From: a virus
Taxonomy: Duplodnaviria > Heunggongvirae > Uroviricota > Caudoviricetes
Length of the DNA stretch: 13,299 nt
IMG/VR virus record: IMGVR_UViG_2537561716_000006
Direction: 5' to 3' (one strand)
The translations under genes were made by a program, and so were the position numbers. How positions within the stretch are numbered: position 1 is the first letter of the stretch; each line of letters starts with the position of its first letter. The notes beneath the pieces are model-generated. The model searched no databases and was not told where the DNA came from. It saw only the letters and a list, made by a program, of their open reading frames with translations. Below are positions 1 to 13,299 of the stretch, piece after piece.

Positions 1-1
1 A

Positions 2-3627
<3,626 letters not shown>

Positions 3628-3647
<20 letters not shown>

Positions 3648-4947
3648 TCTCCCGCATATTGCCAGCATGGCTTTTAATGAGCCGCTGATGCTTGAACCCG
3701 CCTATGCGCGGGTTTTCTTTTGTGCGCTTGCAGGCCAGCTTGGGATCAGCCGCCTGACGGATGCAGTATCCGGCGACAGCCTGACTGCCGGAGAGGCACC
3801 CGCGGCGCTGGCGTTATCCGGTGATGATGACGGACCACGACAGGCCCGGAGTTATCAGGTCATGAACGGCATCGCCGTGCTGCCGGTGTCCGGTACGCTG
3901 GTCAGCCGGACGCGGGCGCTGCAGCCGTATTCGGGAATGACCGGTTACAACGGCATTATCGCCCGTCTGCAACAGGCTGCCAGCGATCCGATGGTGGACG
4001 GCATTCTGCTCGATATGGACACACCGGGCGGGATGGTGGCGGGAGCATTTGACTGTGCTGACATCATCGCCCGTGTGCGAGACATAAAACCGGTATGGGC
4101 GCTGGCCAACGACATGAACTGCAGTGCAGGTCAGCTGCTTGCCAGCGCCGCCTCCCGGCGTCTGGTCACGCAGACCGCCCGGACAGGCTCCATCGGCGTC
4201 ATGATGGCTCACAGTAATTACGGTGCTGCCCTGGAGAAACAGGGCGTGGAAATCACGCTGATTTACAGCGGCAGCCATAAGGTGGATGGCAACCCCTACA
4301 GCCATCTACCGGGTGATGTCCGGGAAACACTGCAGTCCCGGATGGATGCAACCCGCCGGATGTTTGCGCAGAAGGTGTCGGCATATACCGGCCTGTCCGT
4401 GCAGGCTGTGCTGGATACCGAGGCTGCAGTGTACAGCGGTCAGGAGGCCATTGATGCCGGACTGGCTGATGAACTTGTCAACAGCACCGATGCGATCACC
4501 GTTATGCGTGATGCACTGGATGCACGTAAATCCCGTCTCTCAGGAGGGCGAATGACCAAAGAGACTCAATCAACAACTGTTTCAGCCACTGCTTCGCAGG
4601 CTGACGTTACTGGCGTGGTGCCAGCGACGGAGGGCGAAAACGCCAGCGCGGCGCAGCCGGACGTGAACGCGCAGATCACCGCTGCGGTTGCGGCAGAAAA
4701 CAGCCGCATTATGGGGATCCTCAACTGTGAGGAGGCTCACGGACGCGAAGAACAGGCCCGCGTGCTGGCAGAAACCCCCGGTATGACCGTGGAAACGGCC
4801 CGCCGCATTCTGGCCGCAGCACCACAGAGTGCACAGGCGCGCAGTGATACTGCGCTGGATCGTCTGATGCAGGGGGCACCGGCACCGCTGGCTGCAGGTA
4901 ACCCGGCATCTGATGCCGTTAACGATTTGCTGAACACACCAGTGTAA
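3628..4947 (+). CDS. C: Prohead protease / minor capsid protein gpC (439 aa), GTG start
   Basis: GTG at 3628 is preceded by a GAGGAGGAG Shine-Dalgarno inside the 3' end of B, giving a 20-nt B/C overlap as in lambda. The product VTAELRNLPHIASMAFNEPLMLEPAYARVFF... is 439 aa, equal to lambda gpC. The ORF-track start at 3493 is an upstream over-extension through B. Confidence 0.9.
4342..4947 (+). CDS. Nu3: Scaffolding protein gpNu3 (201 aa), in-frame internal start within C
   Basis: ATG at 4342 is in the C frame and begins MDATRRMFAQKVSAYTGLSVQ..., sharing the C stop. It sits 714 nt after the C start, exactly as for lambda Nu3 relative to C (recalled annotation). Confidence 0.8.
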   Translation: MDATRRMFAQKVSAYTGLSVQAVLDTEAAVYSGQEAIDAGLADELVNSTDAITVMRDALDARKSRLSGGRMTKETQSTTVSATASQADVTGVVPATEGENASAAQPDVNAQITAAVAAENSRIMGILNCEEAHGREEQARVLAETPGMTVETARRILAAAPQSAQARSDTALDRLMQGAPAPLAAGNPASDAVNDLLNTPV

Positions 4948-4956
4948 GGGATGTTT

Positions 4957-5289
4957 ATGACGAGCAAAGAAACCTTTACCCATTACCAGCCGCTGGGCAA
5001 CAGTGACCCGGCTCATACCGCAACCGCGCCCGGCGGATTGAGTGCGAAAGCGCCTGCAATGACCCCGCTGATGCTGGACACCTCCAGCCGTAAGCTGGTT
5101 GCGTGGGATGGCACCACCGACGGTGCTGCCGTTGGCATTCTTGCGGTTGCTGCTGACCAGACCAGCACCACGCTGACGTTCTACAAGTCCGGCACGTTCC
5201 GTTATGAGGATGTGCTCTGGCCGGAGGCTGCCAGCGACGAGACGAAAAAACGGACCGCGTTTGCCGGAACGGCAATCAGCATCGTTTAA
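4957..5289 (+). CDS. D: Capsid decoration protein gpD (110 aa)
   Basis: [52 protein letters not shown]... matches lambda gpD. The start ATG at 4957 is 10 nt after the C stop with TAAGGG upstream; the ORF-track start at 4951 adds two spurious residues. Confidence 0.93.
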
Positions 5290-5306
5290 CCTGACCCTTC
5301 ATCACT

Positions 5307-5331
5307 AAAGGCCGCCTGTGCGGCTTTTTTT
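5307..5331 (+). terminator. Terminator-like hairpin in the D-E intergenic region (AAAGGCCGC ctgt GCGGCTTT followed by T-run)
   Basis: Read directly: 5307-5315 AAAGGCCGC is perfectly complementary to 5320-5328 GCGGCTTTT(first 9), with a 4-nt loop CTGT and a T7 tract at 5325-5331. A second T-run at 5338-5344 abuts the E start codon. Confidence 0.55.
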
Positions 5332-5344
5332 ACGGGATTTTTTT

Positions 5345-6370
5345 ATGTCGATGTACACAACCGCCCAACTGCTGGCGGCAAATGAGCAGAAATTTAAGTT
5401 TGATCCGCTGTTTCTGCGTCTCTTTTTCCGTGAGAGCTATCCCTTCACCACGGAGAAAGTCTATCTCTCACAAATTCCGGGACTGGTAAACATGGCGCTG
5501 TACGTTTCGCCGATTGTTTCTGGTGAGGTTATCCGTTCCCGTGGCGGCTCCACCTCTGAATTTACGCCGGGATATGTCAAGCCGAAGCATGAAGTGAATC
5601 CGCAGATGACCCTGCGTCGCCTGCCGGATGAAGATCCGCAGAATCTGGCGGACCCGGCTTACCGCCGCCGTCGCATCATCATGCAGAACATGCGTGACGA
5701 AGAGCTGGCCATTGCTCAGGTCGAAGAGATGCAGGCAGTTTCTGCCGTGCTCAAGGGCAAATACACCATGACCGGTGAAGCCTTCGATCCGGTTGAGGTG
5801 GATATGGGCCGCAGTGCGGCGAACAACATCACGCAGTCCGGCGGCACGGAGTGGAGCAAGCGTGACAAGTCCACGTATGACCCGACCGACGATATCGAAG
5901 CCTACGCGCTGAACGCCAGCGGCGTGGTGAATATCATCGTGTTTGACCCGAAAGGCTGGGCGCTGTTCCGTTCCTTCAAAGCCGTCAGGGAGAAGCTGGA
6001 TACCCGTCGCGGCTCTCATTCCGAACTGGAGACAGCGGTAAAAGACCTGGGCAAAGCGGTGTCTTATAAGGGAATGTATGGCGATGTGGCCATCGTCGTG
6101 TATTCCGGACAGTACGTGGAAAACGGCGTCAAAAAGAACTTCCTGCCGGACAACACGATGGTGCTGGGGAACACTCAGGCACGCGGTCTGCGTACCTATG
6201 GCTGCATTCAGGATGCGGACGCACAGCGCGAAGGCATTAACGCCTCTGCCCGTTACCCGAAAAACTGGGTGACCACCGGCGATCCGGCGCGTGAGTTCAC
6301 CATGATTCAGTCAGCACCGCTGATGCTGCTGGCTGACCCTGATGAGTTCGTGTCCGTACAACTGGCGTAA
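5345..6370 (+). CDS. E: Major capsid protein gpE (341 aa)
   Basis: MSMYTTAQLLAANEQKFKFDPLFLRLFFRESYPFTTEKVYLSQIPGLVNMALYVSPIVSGE... matches lambda gpE at 341 aa. The ORF-track start at 5318 lies inside the upstream hairpin and T-run and is rejected. Confidence 0.95.
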   Translation: MSMYTTAQLLAANEQKFKFDPLFLRLFFRESYPFTTEKVYLSQIPGLVNMALYVSPIVSGEVIRSRGGSTSEFTPGYVKPKHEVNPQMTLRRLPDEDPQNLADPAYRRRRIIMQNMRDEELAIAQVEEMQAVSAVLKGKYTMTGEAFDPVEVDMGRSAANNITQSGGTEWSKRDKSTYDPTDDIEAYALNASGVVNIIVFDPKGWALFRSFKAVREKLDTRRGSHSELETAVKDLGKAVSYKGMYGDVAIVVYSGQYVENGVKKNFLPDNTMVLGNTQARGLRTYGCIQDADAQREGINASARYPKNWVTTGDPAREFTMIQSAPLMLLADPDEFVSVQLA

Positions 6371-6372
6371 TC

Positions 6373-6397
6373 ATGGCCCTTCGGGGCCATTGTTTTT
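6373..6397 (+). terminator. Terminator-like hairpin immediately downstream of E (ATGGCCC ttcg GGGCCAT + TGTTTTT)
   Basis: Read directly: 6373-6379 ATGGCCC pairs with 6384-6390 GGGCCAT around a TTCG tetraloop, followed by TGTTTTTCTG. It is followed by the FI Shine-Dalgarno GGAGGAG (6402-6408). Confidence 0.55.
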
Positions 6398-6411
6398 CTG
6401 TGGAGGAGTCC

Positions 6412-6810
6412 ATGACGAAAGATGAACTGATTGCCCGTCTCCGCTCGCTGGGTGAACAACTGAACCGTGATGTCAGCCTGACGGGGACGAAAGAAGAACT
6501 GGCGCTCCGTGTGGCAGAGCTGGAAGAGGAGCTTGATGACACGGATGAAACTGCCGGTCAGGACACCCCTCTCAGCCGGGAAAATGTGCTGACCGGACAT
6601 GAAAATGAGGTGGGATCAGCGCAGCCGGATACCGTGATTCTGGATACGTCTGAACTGGTCACGGTCGTGGCACTGGTGAAGCTGCATACTGATGCACTTC
6701 ACGTCACGCGGGATGAACCTGTGGCATTTGTGCTGCCGGGAACGGCGTTTCGTGTCTCTGCCGGTGTGGCAGCCGAAATGACAGAGCGCGGCCTGGCCAG
6801 AATGCAATAA
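6412..6810 (+). CDS. FI: DNA packaging / head assembly accessory protein gpFI (132 aa)
   Basis: MTKDELIARLRSLGEQLNRDVSLTGTKEELALRVAELEEELDDTDETAGQDTPLS... matches lambda gpFI. A GGAGGAG Shine-Dalgarno sits 4 nt upstream of ATG 6412; the ORF-track start at 6373 lies in the hairpin and is rejected. Confidence 0.92.
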   Translation: MTKDELIARLRSLGEQLNRDVSLTGTKEELALRVAELEEELDDTDETAGQDTPLSRENVLTGHENEVGSAQPDTVILDTSELVTVVALVKLHTDALHVTRDEPVAFVLPGTAFRVSAGVAAEMTERGLARMQ

Positions 6811-6821
6811 CGGGAGGCGCT

Positions 6822-7175
6822 GTGGCTGATTTCGATAACCTGTTCGATGCTGCCATTGCCCGCGCCGATGAAACGATACGCGGGTACATGGGAACGTCAG
6901 CCACCATGACATCCGGTGAGCAGTCCGGCGCAGTAATACGTGGTGTTTTTGATGACCCTGAAAATATCAGCTATGCCGGACAGGGCGTGCGTGTTGAAGG
7001 CTCCAGCCCGTCCCTGTTTGTCCGGACTGATGATGTGCGGCAACTGCGGCGTGGAGACACGCTGACCATCGGTGAGGAAAACTTCTGGATAGACCGGATT
7101 TCGACGGATGATGGCGGAAGCTGTCATCTCTGGCTTGGGCGGGGCGTACCGCCTGCCGTTAACCGTCGTCGCTGA
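6822..7175 (+). CDS. FII: Head-tail connector / head completion protein gpFII (117 aa), GTG start
   Basis: GTG at 6822 is preceded by GGGAGG. The product (M)ADFDNLFDAAIARADETIRGYMGTSAT...HLWLGRGVPPAVNRRR is 117 aa, as in lambda gpFII. Confidence 0.92.
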   Translation: MADFDNLFDAAIARADETIRGYMGTSATMTSGEQSGAVIRGVFDDPENISYAGQGVRVEGSSPSLFVRTDDVRQLRRGDTLTIGEENFWIDRISTDDGGSCHLWLGRGVPPAVNRRR

Positions 7176-7186
7176 AGGGGGGATGT

Positions 7187-7765
7187 ATGGCCATAAAAGG
7201 TCTTGAGCAGGCCGTTGAAAACCTCAGTCGTATCAGCAAAACGGCGGTGCCTGGTGCGTCAGCAATGGCCATTAACCGCGTTGCTTCATCCGCGATATCG
7301 CAGTCGGCGTCACAGGTTGCCCGTGAGACAAGAGTACGCCGGAAACTGGTAAAGGAAAGGGCCAGGCTGAAAAGGGCCACGGTTAAAAATCCGCAGGCCA
7401 GAATCAAGGTTAACCGGGGGGATTTGCCCGTAATCAAGCTGGGTAACGCGCGGGTTGTCCTGTCCCGACGCAGGCGTCGTAAAAAGGGGCAGCGTTCATC
7501 CCTGAAAGGTGGCGGCAGCGTGCTTGTGGTGGGAAACCGTCGTATTCCCGGCGCGTTTATTCAGCAACTGAAAAATGGCCGGTGGCATGTCATGCAGCGT
7601 GTGGCCGGGAAAAACCGTTACCCCATTGATGTGGTGAAAATCCCGATGGCGGTGCCGCTGACCACGGCGTTTAAACAGAATATTGAGCGGATACGGCGTG
7701 AACGTCTTCCGAAAGAGCTGGGCTATGCGCTGCAGCATCAACTGAGAATGGTAATAAAGCGATGA
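7187..7765 (+). CDS. Z: Tail completion protein gpZ (192 aa)
   Basis: MAIKGLEQAVENLSRISKTAVPGASAMAINRVASSAISQSASQVARETRVRRKL... matches lambda gpZ at 192 aa. A G-rich Shine-Dalgarno (AGGGGGGA) lies upstream. Confidence 0.93.
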   Translation: MAIKGLEQAVENLSRISKTAVPGASAMAINRVASSAISQSASQVARETRVRRKLVKERARLKRATVKNPQARIKVNRGDLPVIKLGNARVVLSRRRRRKKGQRSSLKGGGSVLVVGNRRIPGAFIQQLKNGRWHVMQRVAGKNRYPIDVVKIPMAVPLTTAFKQNIERIRRERLPKELGYALQHQLRMVIKR

Positions 7766-8157
7766 AACATACTGAACTCCGTGCAGCCGTACTGGATGCA
7801 CTGGAGAAGCATGACACCGGGGCGACGTTTTTTGATGGTCGCCCCGCTGTTTTTGATGAGGCGGATTTTCCGGCAGTTGCCGTTTATCTCACCGGCGCTG
7901 AATACACGGGCGAAGAGCTGGACAGCGATACCTGGCAGGCGGAGCTGCATATCGAAGTTTTCCTGCCTGCTCAGGTGCCGGATTCAGAGCTGGATGCGTG
8001 GATGGAGTCCCGGATTTATCCGGTGATGAGCGATATCCCGGCACTATCAGATTTGATCACCAGTATGGTGGCCAGTGGCTATGACTACCGGCGCGACGAT
8101 GATGCGGGCCTGTGGAGTTCAGCCGATCTGACTTATGTCATTACCTATGAAATGTGA
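7762..8157 (+). CDS. U: Tail terminator protein gpU (131 aa)
   Basis: [67 protein letters not shown]... matches lambda gpU at 131 aa. The start overlaps the Z stop as ATGA. Confidence 0.94.
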
Positions 8158-8164
8158 GGACGAT

Positions 8165-8905
8165 ATGCCAACACCAAATCCTCTGGCACCGGTGAAAGGG
8201 GCCGGGACCACACTGTGGGTTTATAACGGGAACGGCGACCCATATGCAAACCCGCTTTCAGACAATGACTGGTCGCGTCTGGCAAAGGTTAAAGACCTGA
8301 CGCCCGGCGAACTGACCGCTGAGTCCTATGACGACAGTTATCTCGATGATGAAGATGCGGACTGGGCCGCGACCGGACAGGGGCAGAAATCCGCTGGAGA
8401 TACCAGCTTCACGCTGGCGTGGATGCCCGGAGAGCAGGGGCAGCAGGCGCTGCTGGCGTGGTTTAATGAAGGTGATACCCGTGCCTATAAAATCCGCTTC
8501 CCGAACGGCACGGTCGATGTGTTCCGCGGCTGGGTCAGCAGTATCGGTAAGGCGGTGACGGCGAAGGAAGTGATCACCCGCACGGTGAAAGTCACCAACG
8601 TGGGACGTCCGTCGATGGCAGAAGATCGCAGCACGGTAACAGCGGCAACCGGCATGACCGTGACGCCTGCCAGCACCTCGGTGGTGAAAGGGCAGAGCAC
8701 GACGCTGACCGTGGCATTCCAGCCGGAAGGCGCAACCGACAAGAGCTTCCGTGCGGTGTCTGCGGATAAAACAAAAGCCACCGTGTCGGTCAGTGGTATG
8801 ACCATCACCGTGAAAGGTGTTGCTGCAGGCAAGGTCAACATTCCGGTCGTATCCGGTAATGGTGAGTTTGCTGCGGTTGCAGAAATCAACGTCACCGCCA
8901 GTTAA
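8165..8905 (+). CDS. V: Major tail tube protein gpV (246 aa) with C-terminal Ig-like domain
   Basis: ATG at 8165 is preceded by GAGGA. The product [57 protein letters not shown]... is 246 aa, equal to lambda gpV. The ORF-track start at 8135 overlaps the U 3' end and is rejected. Confidence 0.93.
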
Positions 8906-8920
8906 TCCGGAGAATCAGCG

Positions 8921-9343
8921 ATGTTCCTGAAAACCGAATCATTTGAACATAACGGCGTGACCGTCACGCTTTCTGAACTGTCAGCCCTGCAGCGTATTGA
9001 GCATCTCGCCCTGATGAAACGGCAGGCAGAACAGGCGGAGTCAGACAGCAACCGGAAGTTTACTGTGGAAGACGCCATCAGAACCGGCGCTTTTGTGGTG
9101 GCGATGTCCCTGTGGCATAACCATCCGAAGAAGACGCAGATGCCGTCCATGAATGAAGCCGTTAAACAGATTGAGCAGGAAGTGCTTACCACCTGGCCCG
9201 CGGAGGCAATTTCTCATGCTGAAAACGTGGTGTACCGGCTGTCCGGTATGTATGAGTTTGTGGTGAATGATGCCCCTGAACAGGCAGAGGACGCCGGGCC
9301 TGCAGAGCCTGTTTCTGCGGGAAAGTGTTCGACGGTGAGCTGA
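8921..9343 (+). CDS. G: Tail assembly chaperone gpG (140 aa)
   Basis: MFLKTESFEHNGVTVTLSELSALQRIEHLALMKRQAEQAESDSNRKFTVEDAIRTGAF... ends ...PVSAGKCSTVS. It matches lambda gpG in length and sequence. Confidence 0.93.
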   Translation: MFLKTESFEHNGVTVTLSELSALQRIEHLALMKRQAEQAESDSNRKFTVEDAIRTGAFVVAMSLWHNHPKKTQMPSMNEAVKQIEQEVLTTWPAEAISHAENVVYRLSGMYEFVVNDAPEQAEDAGPAEPVSAGKCSTVS

Positions 9344-9759
9344 GTTTTGCCCTGAAACTGGCGCGCGAGATGGGGCGACCCGACTGGCGTGCCATGCTTG
9401 CCGGGATGTCATCCACGGAGTATGCCGACTGGCACCGCTTTTACAGTACCCATTATTTTCATGATGTTCTGCTGGATATGCACTTTTCCGGGCTGACGTA
9501 CACCGTGCTCAGCCTGTTTTTCAGCGATCCGGATATGCATCCGCTGGATTTCAGTCTGCTGAACCGGCGTGAGGCTGACGAAGAGCCTGAAGATGATGTG
9601 CTGATGCAGAAAGCGGCAGGGCTTGCTGGAGGCGTTCGTTTTGGCCCGGACGGGAATGAAGTTATCCCCGCTTCCCCGGATGTGGCGGACATGACGGAGG
9701 ATGACGTAATGCTGATGACAGTATCAGAAGGGATCGCAGGAGGAGTCCGGTATGGCTGA
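8921..9759 (+). CDS. T: Tail assembly chaperone fusion gpG-T produced by programmed -1 ribosomal frameshift near 9319-9325
   Basis: The T frame (-1 relative to G) is open from 9325 to TGA 9757-9759, encoding ...FDGELSFALKLAREMGRPDWRAMLAGMSSTEYADWHRFYSTHYFHDVLL... It has no Shine-Dalgarno of its own and overlaps the G 3' end by 19 nt. The slippery heptamer G GGA AAG is in the G frame at 9319-9325. The G-T frameshift is the established mechanism in lambda. Confidence 0.85.
9319..9325 (+). promoter_or_regulatory. -1 programmed frameshift slippery heptamer G_GGA_AAG (G frame)
   Basis: Read directly: gcGGGAAAGtg, with codons GGA (9320-9322) and AAG (9323-9325) in the G frame. A slip to GGG AAA puts the ribosome in the T frame. 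Confidence 0.85.
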
Positions 9760-12301
9760 ACCGGTAGGCGATCTGGTCGTTGATTTAAGTCTGGATGCGG
9801 CCAGATTTGACGAGCAGATGGCCAGAGTCAGGCGTCATTTTTCCGGTACGGAAAGTGATGCGAAAAAAACAGCGGCAGTCGTTGAACAGTCGATGAGCCG
9901 GCAGGCGCTGGCTGCACAGAAAGCGGGAATTTCCGTCGGGCAGTATAAAGCCGCCATGCGTATGCTGCCTGCGCAGTTCACTGACGTGGCCACGCAGCTT
10001 GCAGGTGGGCAAAGTCCGTGGCTGATCCTGCTGCAACAGGGGGGGCAGGTGAAGGACTCCTTCGGCGGGATGATCCCCATGTTCAGGGGGCTTGCCGGTG
10101 CGATCACCCTGCCGATGGTGGGGGCCACCTCGCTGGCGGTGGCGACCGGTGCGCTGGCGTATGCCTGGTATCAGGGCAACTCAACCCTGTCCGATTTCAA
10201 CAAAACGCTGGTCCTTTCCGGCAATCAGGCCGGGCTGACGGCAGATCGTATGCTGGTCCTGTCCAGAGCCGGGCAGGCGGCAGGGCTGACGTTTAACCAG
10301 ACCAGCGAGTCACTCAGCGCACTGGTTAAGGCGGGGGTAAGCGGTGAGGCTCAGATTGCGTCCATCAGCCAGAGTGTGGCGCGTTTCTCCTCTGCATCAG
10401 GCGTGGAGGTGGACAAGGTCGCTGAAGCCTTCGGGAAGCTGACCACTGACCCGACGTCGGGGCTGACAGCGATGGCGCGCCAGTTCCATAACGTGACGGC
10501 GGAGCAGATTGCGTATGTTGCTCAGTTGCAGCGTTCCGGCGAAGAAGCCGGGGCATTGCAGGCGGCGAACGAGGCCGCGACGAAAGGGTTTGATGACCAG
10601 ACCCGCCGCCTGAAAGAGAACATGGGCACGCTGGAAACCTGGGCAGACAGGACAGCACGGGCATTCAAATCCATGTGGGATGCGGTGCTGGATATTGGTC
10701 GTCCTGATACCGCGCAGGAGATGCTGATTAAGGCAGAGGCCGCGTTTAAGAAAGCGGACGATATCTGGAATCTGCGCAAGGATGATTATTTTGTTAACGA
10801 TGAAGCGCGGGCGCGTTACTGGGATGATCGTGAAAAGGCCCGTCTTGCGCTTGAAGCCGCCCGAAAGAAGGCTGAGCAGCAGAGTCAACAGGACAAAAAT
10901 GCGCAGCAACAGAGCGATACCGAAGCGTCACGGCTGAAATATACCGAAGAGGCGCAGAAGGCTTACGAACGCCTGCAGACGCCGCTGGAGAAATATACCG
11001 CCCGTCAGGAAGAACTGAATAAGGCACTGAAAGACGGGAAAATCCTGCAGGCAGATTACAACACGCTGATGGCGGCGGCGAAAAAGGACTATGAAGCGAC
11101 GCTGAAAAAGCCGAAACAGTCCGGCGTGAAGGTGTCTGCGGGCGATCGTCAGGAAGACAGTGCTCATGCTGCCCTGCTGACGCTTCAGGCAGAACTCCGG
11201 ATGCTGGAGAAGCATGCCGGAGCGAATGAGAAAATCAGCCAGCAGCGCCGGGATTTGTGGAAGGCAGAAAGTCAGTTCGCGGTACTGGAGGAGGCGGCAC
11301 AACGTCGCCAGCTGTCCGCACAGGAGAAATCCCTGCTGGCGCATAAAGACGAGACGCTGGAGTACAAACGCCAGCTGGCTGTACTTGGCGACAAGGTCAC
11401 CTATCAGGAGCACCTGAACGCGCTGGCACAGCAGGCGGATAAATTCGCACAGCAACAACGGGCAAAACGGGCCGCCATTGATGCAAAAAACCGGGGGCTG
11501 ACTGACCGGCAGGCAGCGCGGGAAGCCACGGAACAGCGCCTGAAGGAACAGTATGGCGATAATCCTCTGGCGCTGAATAACGTCATGTCAGAGCAGAAAA
11601 AGACCTGGGCAGCTGAAGACCAGCTTCGCGGGAGCTGGATGGCAGGCCTCAGGTCAGGCTGGAGTGAGTGGGAAGAGAGCGCCACGGACAGTATGTCGCA
11701 GGTTAAAAGTGCTGCCACGCAGACCTTTGATGGTATTGCACAGAATATGGCGGCGATGCTGACCGGCAGTGAACAGAACTGGCGCAGCTTCACCCGTTCC
11801 GTGCTGTCCATGATGACAGAAATTCTGCTTAAGCAGGCAATGGTGGGGATTGTCGGAAGTATAGGCAGCGCCATTGGCGGCGGCGCATCAGCGTCAGGCG
11901 GTACAGCCATTCAGGCAGCTGCGGCGAAATTCCATTTTGCGGCCGGAGGGTTTACGGGAACCGGCGGCAAATATGAGCCAGCGGGGATTGTTCACCGTGG
12001 TGAATTTGTCTTCACGAAGGAGGCAACCAGCCGGATTGGCGTAGGAAATCTTTACCGGCTGATGCGCGGCTATGCCACCGGCGGTTATGTCGGTACACCG
12101 GGCAGCATGGCGGACAGCCGGTCGCAGGCGTCCGGGACGTTTGAGCAGAATAACCATGTGGTGATTAACAACGACGGCACGAACGGTCAGATAGGGCCAC
12201 AGGCACTGAAGGCGGTTTATGACGTAGCCCGTAAGGCGGCAATGGATGTTGTGACCGGGCAGATGCGCGATGGTGGTCTGTTCTCCGGAGGTGGACGATG
12301 A
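9752..12301 (+). CDS. H: Tail tape measure protein gpH (849 aa)
   Basis: ATG 9752 is preceded by GGAGGAG and overlaps the T stop. The product MAEPVGDLVVDLSLDAARFDEQMARVRRHFSGTESDAKKTAAVVEQ... ends ...MRDGGLFSGGGR and matches lambda gpH. It is long, coiled-coil and Q/A/K/E-rich centrally, with a Gly-rich hydrophobic segment near the C-terminus. It is 849 aa versus 853 aa recalled for lambda. Confidence 0.93.
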   Translation: MAEPVGDLVVDLSLDAARFDEQMARVRRHFSGTESDAKKTAAVVEQSMSRQALAAQKAGISVGQYKAAMRMLPAQFTDVATQLAGGQSPWLILLQQGGQVKDSFGGMIPMFRGLAGAITLPMVGATSLAVATGALAYAWYQGNSTLSDFNKTLVLSGNQAGLTADRMLVLSRAGQAAGLTFNQTSESLSALVKAGVSGEAQIASISQSVARFSSASGVEVDKVAEAFGKLTTDPTSGLTAMARQFHNVTAEQIAYVAQLQRSGEEAGALQAANEAATKGFDDQTRRLKENMGTLETWADRTARAFKSMWDAVLDIGRPDTAQEMLIKAEAAFKKADDIWNLRKDDYFVNDEARARYWDDREKARLALEAARKKAEQQSQQDKNAQQQSDTEASRLKYTEEAQKAYERLQTPLEKYTARQEELNKALKDGKILQADYNTLMAAAKKDYEATLKKPKQSGVKVSAGDRQEDSAHAALLTLQAELRMLEKHAGANEKISQQRRDLWKAESQFAVLEEAAQRRQLSAQEKSLLAHKDETLEYKRQLAVLGDKVTYQEHLNALAQQADKFAQQQRAKRAAIDAKNRGLTDRQAAREATEQRLKEQYGDNPLALNNVMSEQKKTWAAEDQLRGSWMAGLRSGWSEWEESATDSMSQVKSAATQTFDGIAQNMAAMLTGSEQNWRSFTRSVLSMMTEILLKQAMVGIVGSIGSAIGGGASASGGTAIQAAAAKFHFAAGGFTGTGGKYEPAGIVHRGEFVFTKEATSRIGVGNLYRLMRGYATGGYVGTPGSMADSRSQASGTFEQNNHVVINNDGTNGQIGPQALKAVYDVARKAAMDVVTGQMRDGGLFSGGGR

Positions 12302-12627
12302 AAACCTTCCGCTGGAAAGTGAAACCCGGTATGGATGTGGCTTCGGCCCCTTCCGTAAGAAAGGTGCGCTTTGGTGATGGCTATTCCCAGCGAGCGCCTG
12401 CCGGGCTGAATGCCGACCTGAAAACGTACAGCGTGACGCTTTCTGTTCCCCGTTGGGAGGCCACGGCGCTTGAGTCGTTTCTGGCTGAGCACGGGGGCTG
12501 GAAGGCCTTTCTGTGGACGCCGCCTTATGAGTGGCGGCAGATAAAGGTGACCTGCGCAAAATGGTCGTCGCGGGTCAGTATGCTGCGTGTTGAGTTCAGC
12601 GCAGAGTTTGAACAGGTGGTGAACTGA
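12298..12627 (+). CDS. M: Tail tip assembly protein gpM (109 aa)
   Basis: MKTFRWKVKPGMDVASAPSVRKVRFGDGYSQRAPAGLNADLKTYSVTLSVPRWEATALESF... matches lambda gpM at 109 aa. The start overlaps the H stop as ATGA. Confidence 0.93.
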   Translation: MKTFRWKVKPGMDVASAPSVRKVRFGDGYSQRAPAGLNADLKTYSVTLSVPRWEATALESFLAEHGGWKAFLWTPPYEWRQIKVTCAKWSSRVSMLRVEFSAEFEQVVN

Positions 12628-13250
12628 TGCAGGATATCCGGCAGGAAACACTGAATGAATGCACCCGTGCGGAGCAGTCGGCCAGCGTGGTGCTCTGGGA
12701 AATCGATCTGACAGAGGTCGGTGGAGAACGTTATTTTTTCTGTAATGAGCAGAACGAAAAAGGTGAGCCGGTCACCTGGCAGGGGCGACAGTATCAGCCG
12801 TATCCCATTCAGGGGAGTGGTTTTGAACTGAATGGCAAAGGCACCAGTACGCGCCCCACGCTGACGGTTTCTAACCTGTACGGTATGGTCACCGGGATGG
12901 CGGAAGATCTGCAGAGTCTGGTCGGCGGAACGGTGGTCCGGCGTAAGGTTTACGCCCGTTTTCTGGATGCGGTGAACTTCGTCAACGGAAACAGTGACGC
13001 CGATCCGGAGCAGGAGGTGATCAGCCGCTGGCGCATTGAGCAGTGCAGCGAACTGAGCGCGGTGAGTGCCTCTTTTGTACTGTCCACGCCGACGGAAACG
13101 GACGGCGCTGTTTTTCCGGGACGTATCATGCTGGCCAACACCTGCACCTGGACCTATCGCGGCGATGAGTGCGGTTATCACGGTCCGGCGGTCGCGGATG
13201 AATATGACCAGCCAACGTCCGATATCACGAAGGATAAATGCAGCAAATGA
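12627..13250 (+). CDS. L: Tail tip protein gpL, 3'-truncated (207 aa versus about 232 aa in lambda); possibly a pseudogene
   Basis: MQDIRQETLNECTRAEQSASVVLWEIDLTEVGGERYFFCNEQNEKGEPVTWQGRQYQPYPIQGSGFELNGKG... matches lambda gpL up to ...TSDITKDKCSK. The ORF then stops at TGA 13248-13250, which is the first three bases of an apparent IS terminus. Lambda gpL continues with about 25 more residues (CLSGCKFRNN...) as I recall. Confidence 0.85.
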   Translation: MQDIRQETLNECTRAEQSASVVLWEIDLTEVGGERYFFCNEQNEKGEPVTWQGRQYQPYPIQGSGFELNGKGTSTRPTLTVSNLYGMVTGMAEDLQSLVGGTVVRRKVYARFLDAVNFVNGNSDADPEQEVISRWRIEQCSELSAVSASFVLSTPTETDGAVFPGRIMLANTCTWTYRGDECGYHGPAVADEYDQPTSDITKDKCSK

Positions 13251-13299
13251 ACCGCCCCGGAAATCCTGGAGACTAAACTCCCTGAGAAAGAGGTAAACA
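13248..13299 (+). mobile_element. Left terminal inverted repeat region of an IS3-family insertion sequence (IS629/IS1203-like), partial; continues beyond window
   Basis: The sequence TGAACCGCCCCGGAAATCCTGGAGACTAAACTCCCTGAGAAAGAGGTAAACA begins with the IS3-family terminal TG and closely matches my recollection of the IS629/IS1203 left end, where orfA (MTKNTRFSPEVRQ...) starts a few bases later. Collinearity with lambda L breaks exactly here. Recognition is from memory, not a search. Confidence 0.6.

Follow-up and report, generated by a model that had tools for sequence, protein, structure and literature searches.

We found that L, the minor tail/tail-tip hub gene of a lambda-like prophage of the Escherichia coli O157:H7 type, stopped after codon 207, and that the stop was followed directly by the left end of an IS629/IS1203 element. 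We consider it very probable that this reflects the insertion of a 1.3-kb IS629/IS1203 into L, that the remaining product, L(1-207), is non-functional, and that the event was a late and minor step in the decay of the prophage. The window, i.e. the whole stretch of DNA analyzed, comprised 13,299 bases and was identified by an exact-product look-up as the complete contig AOEA01000078.1 of the draft assembly GCA_000334995.2 (locus L003; 0 mismatches). The truncation, the identity of the IS, and the count and conservation of the cysteine ligands are shown in Table 1 together with their coordinates.

Table 1. Positions in the 13,299-base window of the L truncation, the adjoining IS end, and the cysteines discussed in the text.
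Feature	Position	Strand	Status	Basis
Lambda-type morphogenesis genes upstream of L	1..12627	+		ORF list; translations without internal stops; Pfam
Truncated L, minor tail/tail-tip hub gene	12627..13250	+	207 codons plus TGA stop	Translation; PF05100
Retained part of the Fe-S binding domain	13143..13241	+		Ligands per lambda cryo-EM; 35-homologue alignment
Cys173	13143-13145	+	Retained	35/35 homologues
Cys182	13170-13172	+	Retained	35/35 homologues
Cys205	13239-13241	+	Retained	35/35 homologues
Cys208			Lost from truncated L	Variable, 7/35 homologues
Cys212			Lost from truncated L	35/35 homologues
L-IS junction	13245..13250	+	Last L codon AAA (Lys207), then TGA	Base-by-base comparison with EDL933
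IS629/IS1203 (IS3 family) left inverted-repeat end, first 52 bases	13248..13299	+		52/52 identity

The genes of the window were analyzed with respect to their order and their relatives. They were arranged, intact and without interruption, as A-W-B-C-D-E-FI-FII-Z-U-V-G/T-H-M up to L, which is the order of a lambda-type head-tail module; the 5' end of A was cut by the contig start. A G/T slippery heptamer (GGGAAAG) was present at 9319, and Pfam families were assigned to H and M and, along the contig, to the entire series of genes. Comparison with a prophage of E. coli O157:H7 strain EDL933 showed 99.9% identity (13 SNPs in 13,249 bases) and the same gene order, and many further O157 genomes also matched the window at 99.9%. 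Downstream of L, the EDL933 prophage carries K, I, J, lom, stf, and tfa. Ten of the 13 SNPs were located within the first 1.6 kb (window 43-1582, terminase gene A), six of them in the first 283 bases; this cluster may have arisen when terminase genes of paralogous prophages recombined, or through collapse of repeats near the contig start. The tape-measure gene H (window 9752-12301) encoded 849 residues, compared with 853 and 859 in the similar modules at loci L002 and L004, which shows small tail-ruler length polymorphisms among these prophages. Furthermore, the head-tail module was broken by a ~2.4 kb insert with a group II intron ltrA in NZ_CP038372.1 (3205905-3221557) and three other records; with this reverse transcriptase/maturase insert, a further mobile element has struck the prophage in some O157 strains.

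Next, we analyzed the product of the truncated gene. Translation of 12627-13250 gave a 207-residue L whose C-terminal end was ...NTCTWTYRGDECGYHGPAVADEYDQPTSDITKDKCSK, followed by the stop (protein accessions ELV40756.1 and EHU98885.1). This end was identical to the peptide quoted in the initial annotation, which had counted three cysteines in the retained C-terminus; as shown, these are Cys173, Cys182, and Cys205. A Pfam profile search matched the protein to PF05100 (Phage_tail_L) with an E-value of 3.4e-90 and a score of 301 bits (cutoff, 25). The match covered positions 1-180 of the 206 in the profile, indicating that the C-terminal end of the domain was cut. Over residues 1-207, the product was identical to lambda gpL (chain 8iyk_L, 232 aa) at 204 of 207 positions, with three substitutions. 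With the first 207 residues of the intact L of the EDL933 prophage (WP_001152612.1; NZ_CP120944.1, 3019739-3020437), the identity was 100%; the EDL933 L contains no IS and, past ...CSK, goes on with CLSGCKFRNNVGNFGGFLSINKLSQ to a total of 232 aa. Because the truncated L ends at residue 207 of 232, it does not contain the complete C-terminal iron-binding domain (lambda residues 154-232). The lambda continuation had been described as missing, and L does stop at this residue; however, the contig ends inside the IS, so the 3' piece of L is out of view and a deletion is not implied.

The sequence beyond the L stop was then compared with known repeats. The last 52 bases of the window matched thousands of copies of one repeat without any mismatch. 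In an annotated copy (locus L001), the matching repeat is followed on the same strand by a gene annotated as "IS3-like element IS1203 family transposase"; the element at that locus is 1310 bp long, has the termini TGAACCGCCCCGG...CCGGGGCGGTTCA, and is flanked by a 3-bp target duplication, AAG. The repeat in the window begins with the TG-starting inverted repeat of IS629/IS1203 and is identical to known copies. The element lies in the same orientation as L, and the contig end falls just before the transposase start codon; the part corresponding to the orfA/orfB transposase of the reference copy, with its programmed frameshift, is thus beyond the contig end. Among the IS elements of O157, IS629 has the most copies and is the most mobile (PMC7430833), and gene inactivation by IS629 has been documented (PMC7430833; PMC9943667).

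As for the junction itself, the window was collinear with the EDL933 prophage through base 13249 and diverged from 13250 on, and the TG at the junction belonged both to TGC, the codon for Cys208, and to the terminus of the IS. Since the first three IS bases supply TGA, the L stop codon is TGA, and because this stop is formed at once, the product is gpL 1-207 with no foreign residues. The last L codon, AAA, is predicted to be the 3-bp target duplication of the insertion. The right junction is predicted to read ...CCGGGGCGGTTCA followed by AAATGCCTGAGCGGTTGTAAG, i.e. ...GGTTCA-AAATGCCTGAGC, and the L 3' remnant (75 bases) and K-I-J would follow the IS. A polar effect of the IS on K-I-J is possible; in one studied case, stx2::IS629, the downstream late transcripts and phage production were not abolished (PMC7430833).

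It is very unlikely that the genomic L is intact and that the 52 IS bases were produced in assembly by a chimeric join or by mis-extension into a repeat. The junction is situated where a draft contig built from short reads runs out, and it contains a 2-base microhomology (TG) between L and the IS end; it was present in 0 of 5,426 complete E. coli genomes, and its exact sequence gave no match in the GTDB species representatives. These observations would suit an artefact. However, short-read contigs usually end about a k-mer inside real multicopy repeats, which is the pattern seen here, and the IS starts exactly at its true terminus, TGAACC, which fits transposition and not a random chimera. Moreover, a near-identical contig of another assembly, AIFL01000040.1 (locus L005, 1-6514; GCA_000249395.2), stops at the same base; over its 6,514 bases, 2 SNPs separated it from the window, and it ended exactly with ...AGCAAA. 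A contig that ends at the IS boundary suggests the same insertion in one or more related strains. The junction is thus supported by one draft contig, perhaps two, with the left junction alone in view.

We then analyzed the meaning of the truncation for the Fe-S cluster of gpL. The initial annotation had noted that the C-terminal cysteines of gpL are reported to hold an Fe-S cluster, and this agrees with lambda cryo-EM, in which Fe-S density sits between gpL Cys173, Cys182, Cys205, and Cys212 (PMC10721106). The iron-binding domain of gpL is formed by residues 154-232 and, with the gpJ N-terminus, corresponds to the HDII-insertion domain of T5 pb3; in the tail tip, L forms a trimer with gpJ below the gpM ring and is required for the tip (PMC10721106). 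The full-length L was searched against 1.84 billion representative proteins, and 35 full-length homologues, with about 35-100% identity, were aligned for conservation. Counting the conserved cysteines lost, a check that had been proposed with the annotation, gave one among these homologues, namely Cys212. The loss of further cysteines (CLSGC) thus held for Cys212, an invariant and true ligand, but Cys208 was variable, so that one essential cysteine only was removed. Therefore, the four-cysteine [4Fe-4S] ligand set is incomplete in the truncated L, with three ligands kept and Cys212 gone.

The truncation removed 25 residues (208-232), 20 of which follow Cys212. From Cys212 on, the distant relatives showed C-(K/R)-L-R-F...L-P-F-G-G-F-P, and after it the close ones showed N-N-x-x-NFGGFLSINKL. 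Because one invariant ligand and this conserved 25-residue tail are gone, the truncated L is likely to have lost its function. Tam et al. in 2013 reportedly found that substitution of any one of the four cysteines abolished the activity of lambda gpL. Judged from these comparisons, the earlier view of a cluster-deficient or unstable, and hence non-functional, L appears well founded. An AlphaFold2 model of full-length L (25-sequence alignment) gave pLDDT values below 50 for residues 155-232 and was uninformative on the lost segment.

In the mechanism that we propose, IS629/IS1203 (1.3 kb, IS3 family) would have inserted right after L codon 207, in the same orientation as L. L(1-207) would still have its tube-like N-terminal domain (HDI), and of the four [4Fe-4S] ligands it would hold three; the missing Cys212 and last 25 residues would leave the C-terminal domain cluster-less and misfolded. 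Three-cysteine [4Fe-4S] sites occur in other protein families, and a three-cysteine L could conceivably retain residual cluster binding. The small iron-binding domain of gpL packs with the gpJ N-terminus in the tail tip (PMC10721106). With a non-functional L, the prophage alone would be unable to build a tail tip.

Alternatively, the 207-residue L might still function with a three-cysteine cluster or with no cluster, which we regard as a slim chance. The same 207-residue product has arisen independently at another locus, L002 (GCA_015693455.1, JADPZC010000003.1, 10001-10700), through a TGC-to-TGA nonsense change at codon 208 (...AAATGACTGAGCGGTTGTAAG...) in an otherwise intact tail module, and some gpL relatives have no cysteines in this region (PMC13243795). 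Nevertheless, the invariance of Cys212 and the conserved residues beyond it argue against a functional product. In addition, L002 was found by the exact-product look-up, i.e. with a selection bias, and its allele may equally well represent an inactive gene or an error in sequencing. Unlike the window, L002 has a point change in place of an IS, and its L remnant runs straight on into intact K, I, and J. Its stop context is UGA-C, a leaky stop context in E. coli, and low-level read-through to full-length L is conceivable at this locus. We rejected the idea that the L002 TGA is an IS excision footprint; the length is unchanged, and a single C-to-A change is more parsimonious.

Several contigs end at codon 207, and a hot spot for IS629 or for contig breaks was therefore considered at this codon and rejected, because the look-up selects exactly 207-residue products and this explains the apparent recurrence, the L002 allele included. 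Partial L proteins of 191, 205, 213, and 214 residues were found in about as many contigs as the 207-residue product, and most of these contigs had different DNA backgrounds. It is extremely improbable that codon 207/208 is a recurrent break point that reflects selection, either to switch off tail-tip assembly or for an altered three-cysteine gpL, and not chance. Many L variants of 186-215 residues were observed in E. coli and Shigella assemblies, and some were on long contigs and were not contig-end artefacts. C-terminally damaged L genes seem to be common in resident prophages.

The initial annotation had also concluded that the prophage is tail-defective or cryptic. No tails are expected from this prophage alone, so this part stood; however, the IS as the cause was unsupported, since the EDL933 relative already lacks cI, cro, and N. 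We examined this relative (locus L011, 1-2900; NZ_CP120944.1) and found that int and xis adjoin a partial, 5'-truncated O gene and that cI, cro, N, and the recombination genes are not annotated, so that, from the gene content, the whole immunity, N, and recombination region appears to be deleted in the EDL933 copy. The nin region of this copy carries emrE and ybcK-type cargo genes, as in DLP12. In strain Sakai, prophage Sp8 has the full set of morphogenesis genes and no repressor/antirepressor, and it was found neither to circularize nor to replicate or be packaged (PMC2669165, Asadulghani et al., Table 1). The same pattern (no CI/Cro, no general recombination genes, full morphogenesis set) was seen in the 99.9%-identical EDL933 prophage, which would fit an Sp8-type prophage, an assignment made by matching feature patterns and not coordinates. 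If the copy of the source strain is the same as that of EDL933, it would have been cryptic before the IS arrived; because its early region lies on other contigs, we infer this from the relative. The IS event would then be a late and minor step of decay, coming after the loss of the immunity region in this prophage lineage.

These data also bear on a further reading, in which the insertion is real but without consequence: the prophage was already cryptic, paralogous prophages can provide L in trans, and the IS-excision enhancer, IEE, can take IS629 out again. We consider this reading somewhat probable, and it complements the IS-disruption explanation and does not replace it. In addition to the early-region losses and the inactivity of Sp8 described above, each of the best 12 matching complete genomes, several of them O157, had 2-6 L matches by megablast, and the whole module had 5-9 matching places per genome. 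An intact second L copy in the source strain is thus likely, judging from these genomes. The annotation had named such a copy as evidence against a tail defect; it is probably present, with the counts taken from the 12 complete genomes and not from the source strain. Functional interplay and complementation among the O157 prophages have been described in the "defective prophage pool" study (PMC2669165). Furthermore, IS629 excision is promoted by IEE (PMC9943667), and IEE-mediated excision restored lacZ in another STEC (PMC9397093), so that the L lesion may be reversible. However, the early-region losses and the L counts come from the genomes of relatives and not from the source strain itself.

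Taken together, the preferred reading is an ordinary IS disruption in which both the element and the type of prophage are well known, and it calls for no new biology. Events of this kind have been described before; what finished genomes have not recorded is this particular site. To the O157-type prophage pool it adds a further IS629 insertion specific to a strain, with little import beyond annotation. Even so, the L insertion site could serve as an IS-typing marker, and the allele, a natural gpL short of exactly one Fe-S ligand, could be used directly to test what the gpL cluster does.

Compared with lambda gpL (PDB 8iyk, 8k35, and 8xcg, chain L; PF05100), the truncated L has the N-terminal HDI domain and the positions of Cys173, Cys182, and Cys205 in common, whereas residues 208-232, with the ligand Cys212 among them, are absent. 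Similarly, other IS disruptions are known from O157 prophages, namely nu1 in Sakai Sp4, stx2::IS629 in FRIK1275, and espY2::IS1203 in PV15-279. The L insertion resembles them in the element itself or in the type of event, the insertional inactivation of a prophage-borne gene; the target gene is different.
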